Origin: an uncultured bacterium
GTDB lineage: Bacteria > Babelota > Babeliae > Babelales > Vermiphilaceae
Reading direction: 5' to 3'
DNA: 64,000 bases
Assembly: GCA_963702025.1 (NCBI GenBank)
Contig: OY969699.1
Span: 1,024,001-1,088,000 of the forward strand
A program made the position numbers and the translations under genes. Shown one piece after another: positions 5,307 through 40,017 of the stretch. A model generated the notes under the pieces. It was not told the DNA's origin. It did not search any database and saw only the letters and a list, made by a program, of their open reading frames with translations. Position 1 is the stretch's first letter, and the number at the start of each line of letters is the position of its first letter.

Positions 5307-6401
5307 GACCTTATGCGTAATAAGAAGTAATTTTTTGTAATTCTTTGAAATTTTTGGTAAAAAAAGGTCGGATCAAACTCAGAAAAGGAGACCCGACCAG
5401 TGAAATTTCTTGATAAACTTAGCAGAAAAGAAAACATATTTCAACGTATTGTTGGCTTAAATTTTAAACAATTAGACCAGCTGACCAAAGCAATAAAACC
5501 ACTCTGGGAAAAGTCCGAAAAAGAAAGACTAGATCGGGCAGAACGAAAGCGAAGCATTGGCGGTGGCCACCCGTATAAACTTGAGACTTTACGCGAAAAA
5601 ATTATTGCCACTCTAATCTACTACAAGCAATATCCAACTCAGGAATTTTTGGGGATAATGCTTGGAATCGATCAAAGTGCTATATCAAGGCTTCTTCAGA
5701 AGATGCTACCGCTCATCGAATATGCGGCCGATCCAGAATTAAGAACTTATTTAGCTCAAGCAAAAGAAGATTGGGAAAAGAAAAAAGTAAGCAATTGGAA
5801 TGAATTTTTTCAAAAGCATCCTGATTTGAGAGATGTGTCGGAAGATGCCACAGAACAACAATGTTTTAGAGCCACCAATTATGAGGAACAAAAAAAATAT
5901 TATTCCGGCAAATCAAAACAGCATGCGATAAAAACTCAAATAGCTGTTTCTTCACGTGGACGCATTCTTGATGTATCAAAATCATATCCTGGAAGTGTGC
6001 ATGATAAAACAATCATCGATGAAGAAGAAACTATTAAAAAATTTCCCGAAAAAATTTCTCAAAGATTTGATTTAGCATATCTAGGAGCCAATAAAGATAG
6101 TCCAGAACATTATATTATTTTACCGGTCAAAAAACCGAGAAAAGGAGAACTAACAGAGCTTGATAAAGAATATAACAGGGCCAATAGTAAACGAAGAGAC
6201 GTAGCTGAACATGCATTATCCAAAATTAAAAAATTTAGGATGCTTGCAGGAGTGTTTAGGCAGTCTCTGAAGGGGTATAATCAAGCGTTTAGAAATGTTG
6301 TAGCTTTAGTTAATTTTAAACGACAAAATTCTGTGACGGCAGCATAAAAAATGGGGATGGGGGAAGTGTTATCTTAAAAAATTTTTATTACGCATAAGGT
6401 C
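5307..6401 (+). mobile_element. IS5-family (ISL2-like) insertion sequence
   Basis: Perfect 17-bp TIRs GACCTTATGCGTAATAA / TTATTACGCATAAGGTC flanked by a TA duplication (5305-5306, 6402-6403). Confidence 0.92.
5400..6347 (+). CDS. IS5/ISL2-type transposase (HTH plus DDE)
   Basis: DATEQ, YSGKSKQH, PGSVHD, FDLAY, VAEHALSKIKKF. Confidence 0.92.
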   Translation: MKFLDKLSRKENIFQRIVGLNFKQLDQLTKAIKPLWEKSEKERLDRAERKRSIGGGHPYKLETLREKIIATLIYYKQYPTQEFLGIMLGIDQSAISRLLQKMLPLIEYAADPELRTYLAQAKEDWEKKKVSNWNEFFQKHPDLRDVSEDATEQQCFRATNYEEQKKYYSGKSKQHAIKTQIAVSSRGRILDVSKSYPGSVHDKTIIDEEETIKKFPEKISQRFDLAYLGANKDSPEHYIILPVKKPRKGELTELDKEYNRANSKRRDVAEHALSKIKKFRMLAGVFRQSLKGYNQAFRNVVALVNFKRQNSVTAA

Positions 6402-7886: not shown

Positions 7887-8594
7887 TCAATTATTTGCTG
7901 GCGGTGTAACGATCAGTAATCCAATATCTCTTTGTGTGCCATCGTAATGCCCTGAAAAGAATTTTTCGAATACCGGCCAACGTCTATGATACAGCAATGT
8001 GATATTGTTAGATTGTAAAATTGATTCGCACGCACAAAAAAATGCTATCTCTTTGAGTAAATATTGAGATCCTTCATCAAGCACGGCTTCTGTTACAACT
8101 TGCTTTTTCTGGCTATATCCCTCAATAACTTTTGCTGTTTCTGCGCGCACATCTTCATAGAACTCTCTATTATTCTTATAGAGCGCATTAATATATGCAA
8201 GCTGCTCCCGGTATTGTGCAACATGTTCAATATCGTGATTCCAGTCCATAATTTGAAAATCAGTTGAAAGATATTCCTCATTGACGGCTTGAACAACTCG
8301 CGCGCTATGATTTTTGAGCCCATTTCCTTTTTGGCGTGCTTTTCGTGCTGCCAGGATTGGGGGGTAGCCAAGCGCCATATAGGTATGCGTTGCAGGGATG
8401 TCGGGAGTCCAAATAATCACTTTGGTGAATTCTTTTGCGGCAAAAGCGATAAGATCATGAATGATTTGCTCTTTAAAATAGCTATTGCCGGGGCTCATGC
8501 CAATAATAGCAGTTCCTTTGTTTTGAGTGGCTTTGTAGCCATTTTCAAAGCATTTTCCGGGTAAATTCTTGTGTATCTCCATAAAAACCTCCAT
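7887..8594 (-). CDS. tRNA-dependent cyclodipeptide synthase (CDPS), NYH subfamily
   Basis: IIGMSPGNSYF (catalytic Ser, Asn), YLLKE (catalytic Tyr/Glu), LYH; ~235 aa, typical CDPS size. Confidence 0.9.
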   Translation of the reverse strand: MEVFMEIHKNLPGKCFENGYKATQNKGTAIIGMSPGNSYFKEQIIHDLIAFAAKEFTKVIIWTPDIPATHTYMALGYPPILAARKARQKGNGLKNHSARVVQAVNEEYLSTDFQIMDWNHDIEHVAQYREQLAYINALYKNNREFYEDVRAETAKVIEGYSQKKQVVTEAVLDEGSQYLLKEIAFFCACESILQSNNITLLYHRRWPVFEKFFSGHYDGTQRDIGLLIVTPPANN

Positions 8595-8597
8595 CTA

Positions 8598-9272
8598 TTA
8601 ATTATTTTCAGATAGAAATATTATAGCAAGGAAAAGAAGGCTTGGCAAGGGGGCTATTGCTTTAAAAGCCGAAGGATTTGGGTTTGTGGCAATATAATCT
8701 AAGATAGTTTGGGCGGCTTCTTGAGGTGTCATTTTCGAGGTATCAATTTCAAGATCATATTTTTTACCGTGCGAATGAACCAGTTCAATGAGTGATCGGC
8801 CCAGACCAATTACTCGGTCATTTCTTTCATGTTCACGCTTTTCTATCACTTCCACGGGAGCCTTAATCCCAATAAAATAAACGATATGATCTTTTAATAC
8901 TTCAAGGTAATCAGTTAAACGATTGTTTTCAAACAGAACTTCATCGACAATAATTTTATTACCCGTATCGGCAAGTGCTTTGATGCATAATGGCATCGCT
9001 TTAAAAAGACGTTTGCCATATTCACCAATGTGCAATTTGATTGGTTGTTCCGGGTCTTTTGTAGTTTCAAAGAGAAGGCCGTCATGCGCTCTAGCGCCAT
9101 GGATCATAAACTGCGGTGGCAACATCTCTAAAAAAAATGAATCAATTCCGGTATATATGAGCGGATCTTGAGAAAGCGTTTGTAACGCTCGTGAAATTGA
9201 GGTTTTTCCGCTGCTGCTTGTCCCATTCAGAAATATGATGAATGGTTTATTTTCGATATGATTTTGTTCCAT
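8598..9272 (-). CDS. Chloramphenicol phosphotransferase-like P-loop kinase
   Basis: IIFLNGTSSSGKTS, IIVDEV, REHERNDR..GLG, YDLEIDTS; start uncertain because an in-frame signal-like segment without ATG lies upstream of MEQ. Confidence 0.85.
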   Translation of the reverse strand: MEQNHIENKPFIIFLNGTSSSGKTSISRALQTLSQDPLIYTGIDSFFLEMLPPQFMIHGARAHDGLLFETTKDPEQPIKLHIGEYGKRLFKAMPLCIKALADTGNKIIVDEVLFENNRLTDYLEVLKDHIVYFIGIKAPVEVIEKREHERNDRVIGLGRSLIELVHSHGKKYDLEIDTSKMTPQEAAQTILDYIATNPNPSAFKAIAPLPSLLFLAIIFLSENN

Positions 9273-9360
9273 TGTTTGGCAAGCGAATGTTAAAAACAGT
9301 ATGCCCAGCAAGGCAGTGATCTTTAATTTATGCTGATGGTCAATTGGCTTGCTTAAAAAC

Positions 9361-9996
9361 TTATGGCTTTGGATCAAAGTATCGCCGTTTGTAGTGCTGC
9401 AATTCTTTGAGTGCTTCAAGTGCATTGCCATGCGCGCTAGGCTGCTCGGAGCTAACATATAGACCTCGGGGATCCCAAAGCTGGACCAACTCGGTGATTG
9501 GAAATCCAAATGCTTTTATGCTGATACGCTTTGCAAGATCGCCCATTTCGTCTTGCATGATGTCACCGCGACCCCAGAAATCATTCATATAGGCTTCTGG
9601 TTTTAAGTTCGGAAAATGCGTATCAATAAATGAAATAAGCGCAGCTTCGGCCTTATGACTTTCTACTGTTGCTGCTTTTAATTTTTCCAACAATCCTGAC
9701 TTGGCATATTCTTCTTTTAATGGGCCTTCTATCCGTTCCAAAAGCCATGCCGGTCGTTTAATTATATATGACTCGCTTTCAATAATATTCAACTGCTTAT
9801 CAGTAATAATTGCCGCAATCTCTAATACGCGATTATCTTTTTTTTGATCAAATTGCCGATTTGAGGTTTTGCAACCGAGCCACAGCAGTTTTTTGTCCTG
9901 CTGCGCAGGATTTTGTTCTTGTTGCTCCATTGCATAAACGAGTGGACTTATAACTAACATTATTACGATGTATGCATTGAGACCTGTATTCTTCAT
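9361..9996 (-). CDS. Exported oligoribonuclease (Orn)-like protein with degenerate DEDDh site
   Basis: Signal peptide; LLWLGCKTS...RVLEIAAIITDKQLNII and C-terminal ELQHYKRRYF align with Orn. Confidence 0.75.
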   Translation of the reverse strand: MKNTGLNAYIVIMLVISPLVYAMEQQEQNPAQQDKKLLWLGCKTSNRQFDQKKDNRVLEIAAIITDKQLNIIESESYIIKRPAWLLERIEGPLKEEYAKSGLLEKLKAATVESHKAEAALISFIDTHFPNLKPEAYMNDFWGRGDIMQDEMGDLAKRISIKAFGFPITELVQLWDPRGLYVSSEQPSAHGNALEALKELQHYKRRYFDPKP

Positions 9997-20286: not shown

Positions 20287-21135
20287 ATGAAGAAGATAAT
20301 AATAGCCCTTTTAATAGGGGCATTTCTGACGATTTCAGGTAGTTTGGTCCTCAACAGCCAATTTGGCCCAAAAAAGGCTGTTTTTAGCCCTTTTAAGGGG
20401 TCAAAAATGGCTCAAGAGCTCTTTTTGGAAAGAAAGGCGATACATGACCATTGTTTGCTCAAAATCAAGGAAGAATTTAATATTCCCGAAGGATCATGGC
20501 ATGATCTGATAGAATCGCATTTTAAGGGCTTGGTTGAAACAGATGATTTGATGGGTGCTAGCACCCATCCTGCTAATTCTCAAGATCCTTCAATTGTTGC
20601 TTTTGCCAAGCAGGCATTGGTTGACTATGGGGTGAATCCCCATAAAGTTGCCATACGCTTGGTGGCCAAATCAGGGAGCCCATGCAGGGCAGTGCAAGAA
20701 ATTGTCTATGGGTCCAACAACAAAAATACGATTGCGCATCGTCTCGATATCAATGAGCGATGGGTAACTCAATACCCGCAAGCAATGCAACAGGCATTTA
20801 TTCGCCACGAAATTATCCACTTAATTCATTACGATTCTTTGGAGGGTGGTCATATTATTGCTCTGTTAAATCAACTTGGGTTGCAAGAAGCCGATTATGC
20901 GCATAAACAATCAATTGTTGAATATCGCCATCAGCGGGAAATGCGCGCCGATATTTTATCATTGTGCGATTATTGCGCGGCAGCAAAAGCAGCACAAGAC
21001 TATTTTGATGCAGCAATGAAAAAAGACCCCAAACAAGATGATCCACAATTATGGTTAACCCATCCGTCGGATAAAAAACGGCATGAACAAATAACGCAAT
21101 TATTGGCAAAGAATAATACAATTACTCTTGCCTAA
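20287..21135 (+). CDS. M48-like zinc metallopeptidase
   Basis: N-terminal hydrophobic segment; HEIIH, EMRAD, THP...R. Confidence 0.8.
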   Translation: MKKIIIALLIGAFLTISGSLVLNSQFGPKKAVFSPFKGSKMAQELFLERKAIHDHCLLKIKEEFNIPEGSWHDLIESHFKGLVETDDLMGASTHPANSQDPSIVAFAKQALVDYGVNPHKVAIRLVAKSGSPCRAVQEIVYGSNNKNTIAHRLDINERWVTQYPQAMQQAFIRHEIIHLIHYDSLEGGHIIALLNQLGLQEADYAHKQSIVEYRHQREMRADILSLCDYCAAAKAAQDYFDAAMKKDPKQDDPQLWLTHPSDKKRHEQITQLLAKNNTITLA

Positions 21136-22634
21136 ATTGGCATAGTTCCACGGGCTGCCATTCTTCCCTCAAGAATGGCAGTAACCACTTCATGGGCGTC
21201 CGGCTCATCATCATAAGCAACAATTACACAATCCGCGTATTCTTTGATAAGTTCAACCGCGTATGGTGAACCATAAAGAACAACCGTTATTTTTTTGCCT
21301 TCGTTGTGCAACTTTTTAATAAGCTTCAATGTTTCGGGTAAAATACCAAAATGAAGATGCTTTAATTTATTCATACCGATCAGAGAAATAACCTGATCCG
21401 CATCACTTGGGTTGCCAAGGCGATTATAGGCAATGGTTACCGCGTTTCTATAAATCTCTTTTTTAAGGTTTTTTGTTTGTTCAATAAGTTCCGGCCATGA
21501 TGGCAACTCATTTTTTGGTGTGCCATACTTTTCTTTCATTCTCAACACGCGAAGCACTTTTTCATCAATAGCCTCTTGAGCTAATCTGCCGCTTTCTACT
21601 GCGCGAACAATATACGCGATAATATGCGGAATTGGCATTCTTTTATTAGCGGGGCAAAGAAGCACATCAACACCTGCTTCCAGCGCTTTAACTTCCAATT
21701 CTCCCGCCTGATGATGATCAGAAATTCCTTTCATGCCGATGCCATCGGTCATTATTATACCCTTAAAGCCAAGTTCTTCTCGTAATAAATGAGTAATAAT
21801 ATTTGCTGATAACGTGGCAGGAATTTTTGGATTGGGTTCCAATTTTGGCATTTGGATGTGTGCCGTCATAATTGCCGGCACATTTGCGCTAATTGCGGCA
21901 CGGAACGGCACCAGTTCAATGGCGTCTAAGCGTTCGCGCTCGTGAAACATAACGGGCAATGCATAATGAGAATCGGTATTGGTATCACCATGGCCGGGAA
22001 AATGTTTTGCGCAGGATGCAACCCGTGCCCGCTCCAAACCACGTATGTAGGCCACCACCATTTGTGCAACTCTATCAGGATATGCGCCAAAGGAGCGGAT
22101 ATTAATTACCGGATTATCCGGATTATTATTAACATCGGCCACGGGTGCCAAATTCATATGAACGCCTAATTTTTGTAACAAGAGCCCAACCAGATAACCG
22201 TATTCTTCTACCAAAGCTGGATCGGGCAATGCGCCGAGCGTCATGTGATGCGGCAGTTTTAACTCGAGCGGTAAATTTTGCAGACGCATGGCTGGCCATT
22301 CCGCGTCAAGGGCAATAAGCAGCGGATCTTTACTCAGGCTTTGAAAACGTGCTGCGGTTGCCGATACATCGTAGGCTATGCAGGCGCCCAAAAATAGTAT
22401 GCCGCCAATATCATGCAGGGTAATTAGTTCTTCAATATGTGGCATATCCATGCGATATGATGAGGTGGCCATAAATTCTTGGTTGTATGCTTCATTGCAT
22501 ACCGCTGCGGCGATAATTAATTGGGCAACTTTTTGCGGGAGCGTTAAGTGTGCCAGTTTTTCTTCCGGCGTTTGCGCAGGTAACAATGGGACGAGGGTTA
22601 CTAGCATTATAATGATATTTTTTTTTCGTAGCAT
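21132..22634 (-). CDS. Exported GH3 beta-N-acetylhexosaminidase
   Basis: APVADVNNNP, RSFG, KHFPGHGDT..DSH, MTDGIGM. Confidence 0.92.
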   Translation of the reverse strand: MLRKKNIIIMLVTLVPLLPAQTPEEKLAHLTLPQKVAQLIIAAAVCNEAYNQEFMATSSYRMDMPHIEELITLHDIGGILFLGACIAYDVSATAARFQSLSKDPLLIALDAEWPAMRLQNLPLELKLPHHMTLGALPDPALVEEYGYLVGLLLQKLGVHMNLAPVADVNNNPDNPVINIRSFGAYPDRVAQMVVAYIRGLERARVASCAKHFPGHGDTNTDSHYALPVMFHERERLDAIELVPFRAAISANVPAIMTAHIQMPKLEPNPKIPATLSANIITHLLREELGFKGIIMTDGIGMKGISDHHQAGELEVKALEAGVDVLLCPANKRMPIPHIIAYIVRAVESGRLAQEAIDEKVLRVLRMKEKYGTPKNELPSWPELIEQTKNLKKEIYRNAVTIAYNRLGNPSDADQVISLIGMNKLKHLHFGILPETLKLIKKLHNEGKKITVVLYGSPYAVELIKEYADCVIVAYDDEPDAHEVVTAILEGRMAARGTMPI

Positions 22635-22654
22635 GACGGGTATCCTTTTTTAAT

Positions 22655-22730
22655 GCTTCGACGGGCTCAGCACGAACGGACTCACCCGTTCGCCCTGAGT
22701 AGAAATCGAAAGATTTCGTATCGAAGGGTC
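22655..22730. repeat. Inverted pair of REP-like hairpin units
   Basis: GCTTCGACGGGCTCAGCACGAACGG followed by the reverse complement of CCCTTCGATAC...ACTCAGGGCGAACGG. Confidence 0.75.
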
Positions 22731-22819
22731 AACTTTTTTCCTTTGCCAATCATAATTCATTTGCTATCATGTAACCATTTTGAAATAGTTTGTTCAAGAT
22801 GTTTTTGCACAAGGAAATA

Positions 22820-23152
22820 ATGTACAGAGTAATGTTGTGTGTCGGAGCTTTATTTTTTAATAGTATTTGTACAATGGAACGTAGCCATTCAATGATAACA
22901 AGATCTCGCGCACGGGTTTTGGAAGAAATGCGTGTTCGGCACGAGAGAAATGAGTTTAAAGAAGAAGTTATCTCTCGTTTCTATAGAACCGCGGGTCTTG
23001 GAATAGTAAGCGTGTGCTGTTTTGGAGGCGCAGAATCAATGGATAGCATAGCGTTAAAGGTATGCTTGGGGTGCGTGGCTTGTGCGTGTGGGCAATTGAG
23101 CTTGATAAGTGGTATGCTCACGGTGAGAGATTATCAGAAATGCAAAGAATAG
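22820..23152 (+). CDS. Cys-rich membrane-hairpin exported protein, array gene 1
   Basis: Signal peptide-MER, charged helix, two hydrophobic segments with VCC and CLGCVACAC. Confidence 0.75.
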   Translation: MYRVMLCVGALFFNSICTMERSHSMITRSRARVLEEMRVRHERNEFKEEVISRFYRTAGLGIVSVCCFGGAESMDSIALKVCLGCVACACGQLSLISGMLTVRDYQKCKE

Positions 23153-23234
23153 GGCGGTACCCTTGTTGCAAAAAGAAAGTCCAAAGCGTTTTGAGTTACC
23201 TTTGTTGTTATGCCGACCAAAAGGAGAACGTTGA

Positions 23235-23765
23235 ATGATATTTGTAATGCTACTCTGTGTTTTTAGCGCTATCACTGCGATGGAGCAACCATCTCAACAT
23301 GAGAAGGGCAAAGCTCTTTTGCATTATAAAAAGGCGCGTGATGCATGGTTTGATTGTGCTTGGGACTCTTTTTATTATCGTGAAAAAGATGACGATGGTC
23401 GCGAAACAATGTTTTGCGCAAGAAAGAATCAATATGAAACCTGGCTTGCGGGAAATCGGAGTCGCATTAAGACCGAATGTATTTGTATAGCGTTAACCTC
23501 GGTCGCAACCATTTGTTGTATAAGTTACTTATTGTCAGAAAATATTACCGATAATTCTCAAGAAGTTTGTAGAAATTTTTCTTTAACAGATTGCTTATGT
23601 TGCTGGGGAGCTACTCTTTGTCCGGTAGAGTGTTATCTGAGCGTTCGCAATCTCTGTGATACATGTAAAGAAAAAAAATCAACTAAAACTTTATTGTGTG
23701 ACTATGAAAAAATTGAACAATTAAGGCCGGTCGAGGTTATAATTCAAAAGATGCACAATGAATAG
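23235..23765 (+). CDS. Cys-rich array gene 2
   Basis: Signal peptide-AMEQ; CICI..TICC; CLCCWG..LC..EC. Confidence 0.75.
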   Translation: MIFVMLLCVFSAITAMEQPSQHEKGKALLHYKKARDAWFDCAWDSFYYREKDDDGRETMFCARKNQYETWLAGNRSRIKTECICIALTSVATICCISYLLSENITDNSQEVCRNFSLTDCLCCWGATLCPVECYLSVRNLCDTCKEKKSTKTLLCDYEKIEQLRPVEVIIQKMHNE

Positions 23766-23796
23766 AGCAGAGTCATCTTTTGTTAAGGTATGGATA

Positions 23797-24171
23797 ATGA
23801 AAAAATTTACTGTCTTTGGTCTTTTATTGTGTGGCATGGTGCACGCAATGAATGAGAAGATTACACATCGATTAGCAGAACGAGAAAAATGGGCAATTAC
23901 AGCGGGATTACGCGAACCGAGTGAAAGTGAACAAGAAAGAATGGAAATAGTGAAAGATCATGCAAAAACAATGAGCTGGCTCAGTGCAGGTAGTTTGTTG
24001 CTTGCCGCGACCTGCTTTGGTATTGGTGCGCAATCATATTCTGCAGAAACAAAACTGCTCACTTCTTTGTGTGGTGAAGTGTGCTGTTATTGTGGACTCG
24101 TCACGTGCGTGTGCGGATGTTGCAGTTGGCGTAAGTATCGGAATGAAAGACGAAGTTGGGGATATAAATAA
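23797..24171 (+). CDS. Cys-rich array gene 3
   Basis: MKKF...VHAMNE; CGEVCCYCGLVTCVCGCC then basic tail. Confidence 0.78.
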   Translation: MKKFTVFGLLLCGMVHAMNEKITHRLAEREKWAITAGLREPSESEQERMEIVKDHAKTMSWLSAGSLLLAATCFGIGAQSYSAETKLLTSLCGEVCCYCGLVTCVCGCCSWRKYRNERRSWGYK

Positions 24172-24554
24172 TGAAGAAACTATTTATGGTTTTTTTGTTG
24201 TTGCATTGCGCATTGAGCTGTGCCATGGCCGATAAAGACAGGAGAGAGCTCAGGGCAATATCTGAGCGGAGCAAGAATGAAGAAAAACAAGAAATCAAAA
24301 TATATGCGCTTCTCTCGGCAGTGTCTTTTTCTAGTACATTATTCGGCTTATACGAGTCACGCAACTTTTTAAGAACAATGTATGATAATGAAATGCAACA
24401 GCGGTGTTCGGTGCGCACTCAAAGTTCACTAAAAGATTCGCAGAGAGTGGTTGGCTGCATTGTTTGTGGTATAGTAACTTGTGTAGTCTGCTTGGGGCTC
24501 TGTGATCACTGTCAACGACATTGCAAATATAAGAAGGCACTCCGTGATTTATAA
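24171..24554 (+). CDS. Cys-rich array gene 4
   Basis: CALSCAMAD; GCIVCGIVTCVVCLGLCDHC..HCKYKK. Confidence 0.78.
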   Translation: MKKLFMVFLLLHCALSCAMADKDRRELRAISERSKNEEKQEIKIYALLSAVSFSSTLFGLYESRNFLRTMYDNEMQQRCSVRTQSSLKDSQRVVGCIVCGIVTCVVCLGLCDHCQRHCKYKKALRDL

Positions 24555-24987
24555 AACAATCTCATTTCTTTTTTTCTCAGTACTCATGATGAGTACACAA
24601 GGTATGGAAGAGGAAAAGCGAAAACAATTACAATGCAAAATAAACGAAGAGTGTTCGAATGCGGCTCGCGATAGAAAGAGACTCGAATTTAAAAAATATG
24701 CGGATTTCTATAAAGAAAATCGCAATACTATGCTTCTGTGGGGTTCGGGCACTGGTACAATAACGGCGGCATGTTCTTATGCGCTACGCGATATCTTTGG
24801 CAAAAGTTTGGAATTTTTAACTGCAGAACATCCCGAAATAGTGCCCCCAATCATGCTGGGGCCCAAAGAACAATGGGCTTGCATTTGCTGCGTATTTTGT
24901 GGACTTGGCACCGCTAGCTTTTGTTTTTTTGCATGGGAGGAGTGCCAGAAATATCGTGAACATGATAAAAAATATCATGAACAATAA
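24544..24987 (+). CDS. Cys-rich array gene 5 (GTG start)
   Basis: STQGMEE; CICCVFCGLG...C...WEECQKY. Confidence 0.75.
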   Translation: MIYKTISFLFFSVLMMSTQGMEEEKRKQLQCKINEECSNAARDRKRLEFKKYADFYKENRNTMLLWGSGTGTITAACSYALRDIFGKSLEFLTAEHPEIVPPIMLGPKEQWACICCVFCGLGTASFCFFAWEECQKYREHDKKYHEQ

Positions 24988-25020
24988 GCACCCTGCCCTC
25001 CTGCTGATTATGCACAAGTA

Positions 25021-25449
25021 ATGAGTAAGAGATTGTTATTACTTTTTTTGATATTGAAGTGCGCTTTGAGCAGTGCCATGACCAATGAAGAAGTGCAGCG
25101 GAAAAAAAGAGAAGCGCTTCAAAGAATTGACGAGAGAAATATAAGAAGAGCGCTGGTTGCCCGAGATATGGCGGATGACATAAAAGGTCTCAAACAAAAT
25201 ATAATCTTTGGTGGCTCCTCTTTGCTGGCAACAGTAGGATGTTTTTTTGTTGGACGTCAATCAGTACGATATTTTTATACTGGTATAATAGGGGACCAAT
25301 GTGCTGATGTAACGTTTATTCCTAGTACAGATGCCAATGCATTTTGTTGTGGTCTTTTATGTGGGCTAACAACATGTATTGGTTGCCTTCTGGTATGTGA
25401 TAATTGTCGACGATATAATAAACATAAAAAACGGTATCATGAAATCTAA
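25021..25449 (+). CDS. Cys-rich array gene 6
   Basis: CALSSAMTN; FCCGLLCGLTTCIGCLLVCDNCRRYNK, closest to gene 4. Confidence 0.78.
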   Translation: MSKRLLLLFLILKCALSSAMTNEEVQRKKREALQRIDERNIRRALVARDMADDIKGLKQNIIFGGSSLLATVGCFFVGRQSVRYFYTGIIGDQCADVTFIPSTDANAFCCGLLCGLTTCIGCLLVCDNCRRYNKHKKRYHEI

Positions 25450-25783
25450 TATTGGATTACTAATTCTCATTATCGGTATGCCACTACCGGCCATGAATAA
25501 TGAAAGACACTATGAAACACAACCGAATGTTGAATTTGCAAAATCATTTGTTCAAGGGTTAGTTCTCCTGGGGGCCGGCTCAAAATATTTCATAGTGGCA
25601 GATCGTAATCGCACAAAATATCGTTTACAAGAAAATGGTTCCCAGGCTTTTTCAGAAATATATTATGATGTTGGGCAGAAAGTGGCTTGTTGTTGCGGGA
25701 CTCTTCATTTTTGTTGCGCCTGTGGTATTTTTGGTTACGGATTGTATAAAAAACATGGTCGAAGGAATTTTCGTGAAGAATAA
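25439..25783 (+). CDS. Cys-rich array gene 7
   Basis: LPAMNN; ACCCGTLHFCCACG then basic tail. Confidence 0.72.
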   Translation: MKSNIGLLILIIGMPLPAMNNERHYETQPNVEFAKSFVQGLVLLGAGSKYFIVADRNRTKYRLQENGSQAFSEIYYDVGQKVACCCGTLHFCCACGIFGYGLYKKHGRRNFREE

Positions 25784-26189
25784 GATATTTGTATTACTTG
25801 CAATAACAACGATTAACGTGGGTGCAATGACAAGAAAAGAATTGCGCCTGCGGCATCAAGAACGTCAAGCACGAGAAAAAGTTCAACAAGCAGAAACAAT
25901 AAACTATGAGGAACATAAGGCACGCCAAAAAAATGAACAGTTTGAGATGCTAAAAACAGTTCTTTGTTTTGACGCAGCAACTGTAGCTGCCGGACTTGCT
26001 CTTATTAAATTTGGACCGAATTGCTATGAATTTCCGGCTCCTTGTGGCATAGGTTGCAGTTTGGTTTGCGCCGGATGCGTTACCGCGGGTGCATCAGTTG
26101 ATCATTATTTGTATGAATATAATCCAGAATATAAAGAATGTTGTGACAATGTACTTTGTGGTGGGCCACGCGCAAGTAAGCTGCAATAA
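25773..26189 (+). CDS. Cys-rich array gene 8 (GTG start)
   Basis: AAGGA RBS; VGAMTR; PCGIGCSLVCAGC...ECCDNVLC. Confidence 0.72.
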   Translation: MKNKIFVLLAITTINVGAMTRKELRLRHQERQAREKVQQAETINYEEHKARQKNEQFEMLKTVLCFDAATVAAGLALIKFGPNCYEFPAPCGIGCSLVCAGCVTAGASVDHYLYEYNPEYKECCDNVLCGGPRASKLQ

Positions 26190-26242
26190 GATCTTTTTTT
26201 GATGATTATTTTGAAAACGTATAAATCTAAGGTAAAAACAGT

Positions 26243-26569
26243 ATGAAAAAACTACTATTTCTTTTATTGCTTTCTCTCTCATCATTTAATTGTCATGGCA
26301 TGGTAACGCGCAATCAAGTGCGTCAACGTATATTACAAAGTCAAAAAGTTCAACCGGCCACCTTTACCGATGAAAAAATAAAGGTGCATCTTTCTCGTAA
26401 TAGATTGGATGAGTGTCCCGATTGCGTAGACTTCACATCTTTAGCTGGCCTTGCTGGCTTGACTGCGGCATTTCTTTGCTGTGCTAGTGGTAATTCTACC
26501 GCCGGATACTACTTTGGATTGCCATCAGCCATCGCATTATGTACACAATTAGATGAATGTGGAGAATGA
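26243..26569 (+). CDS. Cys-rich array gene 9
   Basis: CHGMVTR; CPDC, FLCC, two hydrophobic segments. Confidence 0.72.
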   Translation: MKKLLFLLLLSLSSFNCHGMVTRNQVRQRILQSQKVQPATFTDEKIKVHLSRNRLDECPDCVDFTSLAGLAGLTAAFLCCASGNSTAGYYFGLPSAIALCTQLDECGE

Positions 26570-26573
26570 GGCG

Positions 26574-26861
26574 ATGATTGGCTTACGGATGCTCTTTTGT
26601 GTTCTGTGCTTAGTAAGTTTGTCTTCATTTGGTATGGCGCCAGGCAATGGGCCCGGCAACCGTGCTCGAATAAGTCAGCTTAGGGCTAATTGCTATGCAG
26701 TGACGCTTATTACTCTCTGTAACGTGCTGATTTATTTTTCCGATAGATATGAATTTACCTATACAAGTCCACTATTGCTTGACGTTGGTTCTAAGATAGT
26801 TGGGTATAGTGCTATGGGCATTGCTTTGTGGGCAAGTATGGTTGCTCATAATGAGTTGTGA
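26574..26861 (+). CDS. Array gene 10 (membrane hairpin, fewer Cys)
   Basis: SFGMAP; two hydrophobic segments. Confidence 0.62.
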   Translation: MIGLRMLFCVLCLVSLSSFGMAPGNGPGNRARISQLRANCYAVTLITLCNVLIYFSDRYEFTYTSPLLLDVGSKIVGYSAMGIALWASMVAHNEL

Positions 26862-26935: not shown

Positions 26936-27289
26936 ATGGCAACCATTCATTTGAATAAAAAAGGGCTTGAACAAGCGGAACGGCTTATTAAAGCGGGTGA
27001 AATTGAGACTTTTGATACCAATTGGGCAGCAGAAAAACCAACAACCGATGAAGTGCTTAACTACATTAACGCGCACTATATGGATGAATACGGCAGCTGG
27101 TTTTTGGGAGTGAATGTTGATATGCCCAAAGATGTTAAAGAACACTATGATTATCCCTATGGCGATTTAAAAACAGTGCAACGTAGTGCGCTTGTTGATA
27201 CTATTGCGCGTGCAGATAAAGCAGGGCATAAAGATATTGCGCAAGTGGCCAAACGGTTGCTCGAAATGGTTGATAAACGAGCAAAGTAA
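26936..27289 (+). CDS. Conserved-looking hypothetical protein
   Basis: AAGGAG RBS; EYGSWFLG...YDYPYGD...V.R pattern. Confidence 0.8.
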   Translation: MATIHLNKKGLEQAERLIKAGEIETFDTNWAAEKPTTDEVLNYINAHYMDEYGSWFLGVNVDMPKDVKEHYDYPYGDLKTVQRSALVDTIARADKAGHKDIAQVAKRLLEMVDKRAK

Positions 27290-27292
27290 TTG

Positions 27293-27489
27293 TACCTTAT
27301 GCGTAATAAGATGCATAAAAAATGAATTCGCCAGAAACCGCTCATGGTGAGTGATTGCGAAGCAATCGTATCGAACCATAATTTGAAAAATTTAAATCAT
27401 AAGAACCCTTCGATACACCGCTCTGCGAGCGGCACTCAGGGCGAGCGGAACAAGCGTACCTTTTTGTTAAAATAATTACGCATAAGGTC
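27293..27489. mobile_element. MITE with IS5/ISL2 ends carrying two REP-like units
   Basis: ACCTTATGCGTAATAAGA (27294-27311) equals IS left end 5308-5325; ATTACGCATAAGGTC+TA (27475-27491) equals IS right end; 197 bp, no transposase. Confidence 0.85.
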
Positions 27490-27491
27490 TA

Positions 27492-28829
27492 TTATATTCC
27501 TGTCGGATAGGTTTCGGGGAATTCGGCGCTGATCCATGCGGGAGTTTTTTCCAGCGGTTCAACTGCTTTTGTCTGGTCAAGGTGAATAACGGCATCGAAT
27601 TGGCTTGAAAGTGCTGCATTAAAATAATGGCTGGTCCGTTCGGTTTCCGGGCGATAGATAACGCCGATGGCCCGTTCTAATTTTACCTGTTGGAACGCTT
27701 TTTTAAGTTCTTGATTTTCCTGTAAAAAGAGCATGAAATTAGGTATTTCTGCTTGGTGGAGCACCGCTTCGTAGCTATTGGCAAGCGCCGGGCGCACCTG
27801 TTTACGTTCAACCGTGCCATCCCATTCGGTTGCGGCCGAAACGGTTCCTGAATAGGTAGTAAATCCAATGAGCTTCGCCTGATCTTTATAGGTTTCTTTC
27901 ATTAATTGCCCGATATTAATTTCTCCTAATTGGCCTAATTGGGTTGCTTTCGCGTTGCCGATATGAGAGTTGTGGGCCCAAATAACCATTTTTGGTGTTT
28001 CACCTTTTTTGCTGATGTGATCAATAATTGCTTGCGCTGTTTGCATCATATGAGTATCTCGGATGTTCCATGAATCGGCCGGCGACCCAAAAAAAAGTGA
28101 GCGGTAATAATGCTCGGCATCTTTTATCAGCTGGGCATTTTGCTGCGCAAAAAAATATTCTTCAACCGCTTTTTGCCCGTCTTTGCGCAATAGTTCCAGT
28201 GAATTTTGGTGTATATCTTTTAGCTGCTCTAAAACTTGTTGCTGGCACGAGGCGCTGATATCAAACATCGTTGCATAGCCATATTGTTGCGCATTGCGTT
28301 CATACAGTTGCAAACAATTATAGCGCGATCGTGCCCGTTGGGCGGCTGCCGCGTCTGTTTTATCAAGGTAAGATAGAACTTCATCAATAGATTGGTAAAG
28401 GCTGTATAGATCCAGGCCATAGAGGCCCACCTGTTTGATGTCTTTGACGGTGCGGTTGTGATGATAAAGAGCACTGACGAATTCCACCATGGCGGTGTTG
28501 CGCCACATCCATTGCGGGAACCGCTTAAAGCCATCAAGGGCGTGAATGGTATCCGTATCCATTTTTTGACCCTGAATATACCGGTTGATCCGGTAGGCGT
28601 CGGGCCAATCCGCTTCAAGGCCGATAGCATTAAACCCTTTTTTGGTGATTAATTCCAGGGTGATCCGAGCGCGTAACGCATAGAATTCATGGGTGCCGTG
28701 CGTTGCTTCTCCCAGTAATACGCAGCGCGCATCGCCAATATAATCGAGCAAAGAATTGAGTTCATCCTTTTTTCCCGTTAAGGGGCGTGCATATTTTTTG
28801 CAGAATGCAATCAGTTCTTTTTCAACCAT
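27492..28829 (-). CDS. Erythromycin esterase family protein
   Basis: LLGEATHGTHEFY, EADWPD, FPQWMWRN, WAHNSHIG, ERAIGVIY..SHY. Confidence 0.93.
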   Translation of the reverse strand: MVEKELIAFCKKYARPLTGKKDELNSLLDYIGDARCVLLGEATHGTHEFYALRARITLELITKKGFNAIGLEADWPDAYRINRYIQGQKMDTDTIHALDGFKRFPQWMWRNTAMVEFVSALYHHNRTVKDIKQVGLYGLDLYSLYQSIDEVLSYLDKTDAAAAQRARSRYNCLQLYERNAQQYGYATMFDISASCQQQVLEQLKDIHQNSLELLRKDGQKAVEEYFFAQQNAQLIKDAEHYYRSLFFGSPADSWNIRDTHMMQTAQAIIDHISKKGETPKMVIWAHNSHIGNAKATQLGQLGEINIGQLMKETYKDQAKLIGFTTYSGTVSAATEWDGTVERKQVRPALANSYEAVLHQAEIPNFMLFLQENQELKKAFQQVKLERAIGVIYRPETERTSHYFNAALSSQFDAVIHLDQTKAVEPLEKTPAWISAEFPETYPTGI

Positions 28830-39060: not shown

Positions 39061-40017
39061 TAGCGAGCTTCACTAGGCCTCACACATTTCTCCCAATGTT
39101 TTGACTGCGGCCTCATAAAAATCTTTTATTCCCTCTGCGGCCTTTCGAATCGCATTTTTGACAGTAGCCCATCGATGTTCTATCGGGTTAAAATCTGGAG
39201 AATATGGTGGTAAAAAAATGATTCTACAACCAACTGCTTCAATGAGTTCAACTACTTTTTTAGATTTGTGGAAGCTGGCATTATCGATTACAACAACCAT
39301 TCCAGGCTTTAATGCAGGAGCTAAAACTTGTTCCACGTAAGTTTCATAAGTATCAGCAGTTGAATATCCTTCAAATAAAAATGGCGCAAATAATAAATTT
39401 AAATTCAGCGCAGCGGTGATATTATAGCGCGTTATTCTCTCAGCTTTTTTTATTGCGTGGCATCGCTCGCCCTCTGGCGCCCAGCCAGCATTTGGCACTT
39501 CATTATCGTCGATTCCCGTTTCATCAGAATAGACAATGAGCGCAGGATCGATATTTTCTATTTCTTCTAAAAATTGTTTGCGTTTATCTGCATTCGCTTC
39601 GATGTAACCAAAAGTTTTTTTTTGATGTGTAACCAATTTTTTTAAGTGCTCGTTGTATCGTGATATCCGATATGCAAACATTTGTAATTTTTTCCCACTC
39701 AATCGCCATTTTTAATGAAGTAAAATGTTGGTTTTCTTTTGCAAATTCTTTAAATTTTTCCCAATCAGTAATTTTATGACTGTGTCCATTCTGATAGCCG
39801 GATTTTGGCGCAAGGCTATTCACTTCTTGGCGCAACTTAAGCCAGTTATAAATTGCGTTTCGCCCAACTTTGAATAATTTAGCCACATCAGTTATACGCA
39901 TTCCATCATCTACTGCAGCTATTACTCGTTTTCTTAAATCTATGCCAAGTGCCATACTTTCTCCTTAAGTTTGAAGAAATCTTAGCATATCTGTTTGTTA
40001 TTTAAAGAAGTTTGCTA
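39061..40017 (-). mobile_element. IS630-family insertion sequence
   Basis: Imperfect TIRs TAGCGAGCTTC / GAAGTTTGCTA with TA duplications at 39059-39060 and 40018-40019. Confidence 0.88.
39073..39955 (-). CDS. IS630 transposase in two frames (orfA 39584-39955 HTH, orfB to 39073 DDE) joined at an A9 run
   Basis: DLRKRVI HTH; DETG, IDNASFH, LPPYSPDFNPIE; A9 on minus strand at 39615-39623, orfB in +1 frame. Confidence 0.88.

Follow-up and report, generated by a model that had tools for sequence, protein, structure and literature searches.

What are the ten small, cysteine-rich, apparently exported proteins encoded in tandem in an uncultured intracellular-type bacterium, and where would they act? 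Their genes, g1 to g10, occupy positions 22820-26861 of the window, by which we mean the whole 64,000-nucleotide stretch of contig OY969699.1 (assembly GCA_963702025.1, positions 1,024,001 to 1,088,000, forward strand) that was analysed. The genome carrying them (G000) belongs to Candidatus Babeliales, as had been guessed in an earlier reading of the DNA alone (the original prediction), and is a single contig of 1.596 Mb with 39% GC and 95% completeness. The array family (g1 to g8) is real, previously unnamed, genus-restricted and fast-turning. With about an even chance of being right, we read its products as Sec-exported helical hairpins of host membranes that are S-acylated by the host and play a role like that of chlamydial Inc proteins without being Incs.

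The first question is whether these are genes at all. The original prediction of ten consecutive, often overlapping plus-strand genes of about 95-175 amino acids (aa) agrees with what the window contains, namely ten consecutive plus-strand open reading frames (ORFs) of 95-176 aa with intergenic gaps from g1 to g10 of 82, 31, -1, -11, 33, -11, -11, 53, and 4 nt, overlapping at four of the nine junctions; g5 (24544) and g8 (25773) have GTG starts. The tight spacing suggests that the array is a single, predicted operon. By a hexamer coding score the annotated frame is the best of six in all ten genes, at -0.06 to 0.20 per codon, compared with -0.19 or below in the other frames and a median of 0.24 for short genes. 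The predicted richness in cysteine was also found, the array proteins containing 4.2-9.1% Cys against 1.37% genome-wide.

Orthologues in a sister species, represented by the metagenome locus L130 (∼87% nucleotide identity to the window), show that the array genes are real and under purifying selection, evolving approximately three times faster than their flanks. For seven array genes, a set that includes only the 3' piece of g4, the ratio of nonsynonymous to synonymous substitution rates (dN/dS) is 0.30 (confidence interval 0.24-0.38; 786 codons), compared with 0.095 (0.08-0.11; 1714 codons) for seven flanking genes. No array gene exceeds a dN/dS of 0.55, and positive selection is therefore not shown. 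A shadow-ORF artefact was considered and rejected on the strength of the hexamer frame scores and these constrained orthologues.

The ten genes had been proposed to form one diverged family. Clear relatedness inside the window is confined to g4, g5, and g6 (z 3.7-7.8) and to g1 with g3 (z 5.3), with g4 and g6 the closest pair (z 7.8), as predicted. A leave-out profile, built without any sequence from G000 or L130, recognises g2, g4, g5, g3, g6, and g8 (E 3e-8 to 0.007) and, weakly, g7 (0.28), but not g1, g9, or g10; the best reversed decoy scores E 3.4. The reverse profile tests are weaker, with E<0.01 for all four sequences from metagenome locus L131, two of 15 from the congeneric genomes G002 and G003, and one of six from the congener G006, and a further profile, A3, found four G002 genes outside its training set (E 3e-17 to 2e-9). 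The individual genes are as follows.

g1, 22820..23152, plus strand: 110 aa; signal then ME; a family member via g3 (z 5.3); L130 orthologue at 80% identity; missed by the leave-out profile (E 18).
g2, 23235..23765, plus strand: 176 aa with 16 Cys; signal then ME; leave-out profile E 1e-6; closest to the G003 array's first intact gene; missing from L130.
g3, 23797..24171, plus strand: 124 aa; signal then MN; eight Cys in helix 2 and a basic tail; leave-out profile E 0.002; missing from L130.
g4, 24171..24554, plus strand: 127 aa; CxxCG...CDHC and a basic tail; leave-out profile E 3e-8; frameshifted copy in L130.
g5, 24544..24987, plus strand: 147 aa; GTG start; signal then ME; z 7.7 to g6; leave-out profile E 2e-5.
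g6, 25021..25449, plus strand: 142 aa; predicted two-helix hairpin (AlphaFold2, AF2); leave-out profile E 0.003.
g7, 25439..25783, plus strand: 114 aa; six Cys in helix 2 and a basic tail; a weak family member (leave-out profile E 0.28; single-linkage with g1/g3); dN/dS 0.16.
g8, 25773..26189, plus strand: 138 aa; GTG start; leave-out profile E 0.007; missing from L130.
g9, 26243..26569, plus strand: 108 aa; a real gene with a 77% identical L130 orthologue; leave-out profile E 29, a poorer score than that of its own reversed decoy; not shown to be a family member.
g10, 26574..26861, plus strand: 95 aa, Cys-poor; a real gene with an 82% identical L130 orthologue; leave-out profile E 270; not shown to be a family member.

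By these profile and pairwise scores, common ancestry is supported for g1-g8 only, with g7 weak and g1 joined only through g3; g9 and g10, which the proposal had included, score like decoys.

The proposal that these proteins match no named family has stood. Pfam and NCBIfam searches with the ten array proteins, and Pfam searches with 32 members, returned nothing above curated cut-offs; the best match in a PDB sequence search has an E value of 0.049, and the ESM Atlas offered nothing usable for g6 and one hypothetical cluster (0.76) for a G003 member. Searches of the mostly openly available literature, supplements aside, showed no description of the family, and the family tables of Babela massiliensis may bear on it. 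A profile of the mature proteins gives full matches in four of 261 genomes of the phylum, all from this genus, all at the same chromosomal position, and all contributing to the profile, with two weak partial matches elsewhere. Applied to 3119 candidates from a 5.8-billion set, the profile returned 12 proteins, consisting of g6, two window-gene orthologues, and nine members of a Cys-poor subfamily; this subfamily, with 0-2 Cys, has a Cys-rich homologue in L131 (E 1e-9). A 1.84-billion search with profile A1 yielded six matches, five of them window proteins and one a g1 orthologue.

Weak matches to profile A3 in other genera were followed and set aside; they are mostly signal-peptide matches, and none of the 14 loci inspected has a Cys-rich hairpin array. 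Other genera do have tandem arrays of short signal-helix-transmembrane proteins (L154/G009, L158/G020, L175/G073), mostly Cys-poor and unmatched by the mature profile, and the array design may recur across the phylum.

How does such an array behave over evolutionary time? It lies in a slot between two genes that are present in all of the congeners.

GH3 glycoside hydrolase gene (left flank), 21132..22634, minus strand: Pfam PF00933, E 4e-75; in seven of seven congeners; transcribed away from the array.
Conserved 117-aa gene (right flank), 26936..27289, plus strand: matched by neither Pfam nor NCBIfam; found in 30 of the family's 80 genomes and in seven of seven congeners.

This slot is hypervariable in the genus, with gene numbers of 0, 1, 4, 6, 7, 8, 9, or 10 when frameshifted or stopped copies are included. 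G003 has seven slot genes over two contigs, and G002 has nine, likewise split between two contigs, its first gene being interrupted by an in-frame stop and the link to GH3 cut by a contig end; G006 has five intact genes and one that is frameshifted. The array is missing from the other four of the seven congeners: G004 has no gene at the slot, and G001, G005, and G007 have one each, of 107-112 aa. These single signal-peptide genes (L106:4432-4770, L107:4559-4882, and L108:4648-4974) are homologous to one another and have no match to the array. Eight metagenome loci were found and five of these read (L130, L131, L132, L133, and L134). L130 has eight slot genes, lacking g2, g3, and g8, with g4 frameshifted and one extra new gene; L131 has four, and L132, L133, and L134 have none. 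No such array is present at ten loci around the 117-aa gene in nine genomes of other genera, and the GH3 gene, used as bait in a contig search, found matches in distant phyla only. The tree of the 117-aa gene, although mostly unresolved, forces at least two changes of array presence. Gains and losses between related species mark the array as a birth-and-death gene cluster, seen in a single Babeliales genus; together with the dN/dS values and the profile results, this turnover bears out the description of the family as diversifying.

What kind of protein is being turned over? Signal peptides were called with our own heuristic, not SignalP, and by it all ten array proteins have a signal-peptide-like start followed by Met. 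Cysteines in the 39 full-length slot proteins are distributed unevenly, accounting for 0.9% of the charged helix, 8.1% of helix 1, 4.3% of the loop, 19.8% of helix 2, and 9.7% of the tail. The loop between the hydrophobic segments is 30 aa or shorter in nine of ten window genes and 35 of 39 slot proteins, with zero or negative net charge in 36 of 39. AF2 gave a two-helix hairpin in both runs (predicted local distance difference test score, pLDDT, 77 and 80; predicted template modelling score, pTM, 0.32 and 0.42), the helices of mature g6 spanning 3-72 and 84-122 (pLDDT 80, pTM 0.42). With these models (pTM 0.32 and 0.42) Foldseek found no PDB match at E<=0.001, and VIA-align found only generic coiled coils and helical hairpins (best Z 9.1), results that establish neither a new fold nor a known one.

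The two predicted hydrophobic segments are present, but they are marginal. Ala, Gly, Cys, and Ser constitute 49% of them, and on an insertion scale their median is 1.8, compared with 1.3 for an MFS and 0.4 for a SulP transporter and 5.8 for the best segment of typical proteins of the post-signal Met class described below; scoring Cys as Ser raises the median to 3.3. On these scores the array segments are marginal membrane segments whose hydrophobicity comes in large part from Cys.

The signal peptide ending at Met, which had been put forward as a feature of the array, is found in all ten genes, but it is common to 331 of the 676 signal-peptide-like proteins of G000, in which the hydrophobic core is closely followed by a small residue and Met. 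At that place the frequency of Met reaches a peak of 13%, compared with 1-3% further on. Glu follows the Met in 155 of the 331, and one of Asp, Glu, Asn, or Gln (D/E/N/Q) in 66% against a background of 20%. Met-Asn and Met-Gln fall within the NatB substrate type. Post-signal Met is present in 36 of 39 slot proteins (D/E/N/Q next in 25 of the 36), in ten of ten window genes (D/E/N/Q next in five), and in 64 of 75 signal-bearing ankyrin proteins. An acidic residue after Met is what marks a NatB-type substrate (10.1101/014324).

Which proteins share this mark? Twenty 20-kb stretches at roughly even spacing, four of them chosen to take in envelope or redox genes, contain 162 signal-peptide-like proteins; all but 12 short ones were scanned against Pfam, and 91 of these 150 had no match. 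Counted by hand, 24 of 27 ankyrin, LRR (leucine-rich repeat), or WD40 proteins have the post-signal Met, compared with four of 32 other Pfam-annotated proteins (p 2e-9), several of the 32 being cytoplasmic false calls of the signal heuristic. OmpA, secretin, and BamA lack it. CaaX C-termini occur in 13 of the 331 Met-class proteins and nine of 1227 others (p 1e-4), and Cys occurs 15 times at position -4 of the class but 1-8 times at the other last ten positions (Poisson 4e-6). In loci from relatives the Met is present in 101 of 197 signal-bearing ORFs, and all four CaaX ends are among these 101. Prenylation at CaaX takes place in the eukaryotic cytosol and is exploited by effectors (PMC2916131). 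Because the mark is shared with ankyrin, LRR, and WD40 proteins and the class is enriched in CaaX ends, we infer that the Met class reaches the host cytosol and uses host lipidation. The mark is not array-specific; carried by all ten array genes, it points to a putative host-delivered class. Searches of the mostly openly available literature showed no account of a Met or CaaX pattern in Babelota.

The Babelota described so far live as parasites inside protists and encode many proteins with signal peptides; the sole secretion system detected in them is type II (PMC6561590, PMC4776705, PMC4378268). G000 has 96 ankyrin proteins by a self-built profile, as expected for Babelota/Dependentiae, and encodes two secretins, two T2SSE ATPases, two T2SSF proteins, and BamA. 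The type III export gate FHIPEP has no match in this 95%-complete single contig, the control search having matched in four of 14; VirB4 was not found, Dot/Icm and Tat not having been searched for.

Host delivery and host lipidation of the array proteins are supported, indirectly, by the Met mark they share with the CaaX-enriched class, and a possible sequence of events can be outlined. Sec export and signal cleavage are predicted to leave an N-terminal Met, and the proteins, as part of the Met-marked class, would leave by the one route that was found, the type II-like secretin system. Their small-residue, marginally hydrophobic helices would partly escape arrest in the bacterial membrane, and the hairpin would come to lie in or on the host or vacuole membrane with its Cys-free charged helix in the cytosol. 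Several cysteines of helix 2 would then be acylated by host DHHC enzymes, in the manner of CYSTM/CYSPD proteins and of effectors that receive lipids. Acylation typically falls on cysteines where membrane and cytosol meet, and effectors are among the proteins that host enzymes acylate (PMC5780409). We further speculate that the variable charged helices have host proteins of trafficking or defence as their binding partners, and that pressure from the host drives the gene turnover. A bolder version, possible but on balance doubtful, is that Babelota deliver several hundred proteins by Sec and a type II-like system with a cleavage-exposed, eukaryote-style Met-Glu as an export or stability mark, the array being an independently evolved Inc counterpart whose hairpins transit in soluble form and turn into vacuole-membrane proteins only once multiply acylated by the host.

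Known systems resemble this arrangement in parts. Incs are defined by two transmembrane helices with a loop under 30 aa (the bilobed hydrophobic domain) and a type III signal (PMC3048545). Like the chlamydial Incs, including the Cys-rich CrpA/CT442, the array proteins are small, lineage-specific, and diverse in sequence, with two predicted, marginally hydrophobic helices and a helical extension in an intracellular bacterium, and 35 of 39 have a loop that short. Membership among the Incs, which the original prediction had brought into play, is nonetheless contradicted by a Sec-type signal in ten of ten and by the failure to find an FHIPEP gate; the array is also from a different phylum, without Pfam match, with weaker hydrophobicity and with Cys inside the helices. 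In yeast CYSTM proteins a Cys-dense "transmembrane" helix near the C-terminus is a multiply palmitoylated anchor (PMC10840359). The array proteins likewise have a Cys-dense helix near the C-terminus, but CYSTM/CYSPD proteins are eukaryotic with a single Cys motif, whereas array proteins have a signal peptide and a second helix; CYSTM/CYSPD Pfam models matched none of the ten array proteins (E<=1) or of 32 members (E<=0.5). The Legionella effectors GobX, LpdA, and AnkB and Salmonella SseI owe their anchorage in host membranes to S-acylation by the host or to CaaX prenylation (PMC5780409, PMC2916131), and the CaaX boxes of the G000 Met class recall them. These are type III or IV substrates with enzyme or adaptor domains, however, whereas the array encodes small multi-Cys hairpins with no recognisable domain, and in G000 only a type II-like system was found. 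Babela massiliensis has lineage-specific secreted or membrane families in islands, with a proposed action on the host via type II secretion (PMC4378268). Its Cys-rich family is large and beta-barrel (PMC4378268), unlike the array, whose profile has no full match outside the genus in 261 genomes.

Several observations weigh against the host-acylated hairpin. The reading is weakest at the point where a protein with hydrophobic helices would have to cross by Sec and then by a type II system, and the hydrophobicity gap to true inner-membrane helices is small (p 0.013). None of the ten array proteins has a CaaX end (Cys at -4), so that lipidation is argued by class. The short basic tail, originally taken to be general, is net basic in six of ten window genes and 20 of 39 full-length slot proteins, and in G006 the tails of members are acidic and rich in Cys. 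VKOR and exported CxxC proteins make periplasmic disulfides possible in G000, and the retention and CxxC spacing of cysteines, considered next, are as metal ligands would give.

The LITAF domain is a zinc-clipped re-entrant hydrophobic loop with CxxC...HxCxxC ligands around a hydrophobic stretch. By analogy the array proteins could be host-delivered monotopic proteins with a CxxC pair at either end of helix 2, the two pairs together coordinating a single zinc and clipping such a loop, extra cysteines perhaps being acylated; we consider this unlikely, though it is the best-placed of the alternatives. Metal binding had been listed at the outset and receives some support: CxxCG, 7-18 residues, then CxxC occurs in nine of 41 sequences against a mean of 0.18 in shuffled ones, and pairs at i,i+3 (CxxC spacing) are 2.3-fold enriched. 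Cys is the best-kept residue between G002 and G003 (77% vs 56%, p ∼8e-4), with core Cys kept between orthologues and accessory Cys changing; between the window and L130 it is kept at 46 of 53 sites, compared with 81% of other residues, which is not significant. Nine of the 41 sequences thus resemble LITAF in having CxxC, a Cys-rich hydrophobic stretch, and CxxC, but none of the nine has His before the second pair, the spacer is shorter and variable, and there is no Pfam match, nor is any zinc-finger family significant. The full pattern is absent from 32 of 41 sequences, the 0-2 Cys subfamily retains the architecture, and the unbroken helix 2 of the AF2 model (pTM 0.42) would set the CxxC pairs far apart. 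Cys pairs at i,i+1, i+4, and i+7 are enriched as well, suggesting a helical face. Retention, CxxC enrichment, and the partial pattern together indicate that some cysteines are selected without forming an invariant set; and because their number and position vary and a homologous subfamily has 0-2 Cys, optional lipid sites fit better than a required ligand set.

Could the proteins instead stay in the bacterial envelope? They would then be variable envelope proteins with a cleaved signal and two passes, linked by VKOR-pathway disulfides into oligomers and diversifying under host or phage pressure, comparable in role to the chlamydial Cys-rich envelope proteins; this we regard as improbable, by a shade more than the zinc-clipped loop. 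A Sec signal followed by hydrophobic segments normally makes an inner-membrane protein, and this is the predicted layout of the array proteins; their segments overlap MFS helices in hydrophobicity, VKOR is present, and exported CxxC thioredoxin-like ORFs were recognised by motif. The identified envelope proteins, however, lack the post-signal Met carried by all ten, and a cleaved signal with two passes would put the basic tails in the periplasm, contrary to the positive-inside rule. The cysteines lie inside hydrophobic helices and are odd in number in 23 of 41 sequences, DsbA families have no match in G000, and the array is missing from four of seven congeners. A DHHC search likewise gave no match, but its control search was equally silent.

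Secreted membrane-perturbing or pore-forming hairpins, hetero-oligomers that would open the vacuole for nutrients or other effectors, are the least probable, since for all their small-residue segments (49% Ala, Gly, Cys, and Ser), tightly coupled genes, and long charged helix running into the hairpin, a nutrient pore or translocon should be conserved, whereas this family is missing from four of seven congeners and other genera, its members turn over singly, and its fold matches (best Z 9.1) are generic coiled coils.

Two further elements lie between the GH3 gene and g1.

REP-like (repetitive extragenic palindromic) dispersed repeat, 22651..22735, no strand assigned: 39 genome blastn matches including itself.
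Candidate sigma-70 promoter TTGCCA-16-TATCAT, 22743..22770, plus strand: upstream of g1; one of two 10/12 matches; weak.

The promoter and terminator scan did no better than shuffles, with 11 sites against 13.4. A second REP-like repeat lies beyond the array at 27401-27455 (eight genome-wide blastn matches), and transposases in the window are IS4-like, IS5-like, and DDE_3 (357-1481, 5400-6347, and 39073-39702). A recent horizontal island is not supported by composition, with GC of 40% vs 39% and third-position GC (GC3) of 0.33 vs 0.32-0.35. The 117-aa gene has a paralogue at G000:C1:612876-613217 with VKOR nearby, and elsewhere its neighbours include a DsbD/CcdA-type gene (L120), MauE (L127), ChaB (L129), and an ATP-dependent DNA ligase (L121); these neighbours suggest a stress or redox role for the 117-aa protein. 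On the other side of GH3 an M48-like gene (window 20287-21135) is tandemly expanded in congeners (L107, L108, L109, and L112), with up to ∼5 copies in G002, and forms a second variable array adjoining the Cys-rich one. Window 27492-28829 holds an erythromycin esterase family gene (PF05139) beside a phosphoribosyltransferase, in the same place in G007 and missing in L130, and window 7887-9509 a tRNA-dependent cyclodipeptide synthase (TIGR04539, above cut-off) adjoining a CPT-like phosphotransferase, an uncommon find in a reduced bacterium of intracellular habit. At G000:C1:784390-786232 a different family is represented by three secreted, Cys-rich paralogues in tandem (6-9% Cys), which lack hydrophobic hairpins.

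Babelota are widespread parasites that live inside protists, and a type II-like system is the only means of secretion recorded for them. If its products reside in the envelope, the array is an ordinary hypervariable orphan cluster. As read here, it supplies concrete candidates for effectors of the vacuole or host membrane. The rule of a post-signal Met, mostly Met-Glu, together with enrichment in CaaX ends, sets ankyrin-type proteins apart from envelope proteins; should this rule hold, it would predict the host-delivered proteome across the phylum, and these bacteria would have a route to a membrane that needs neither type III nor type IV secretion.

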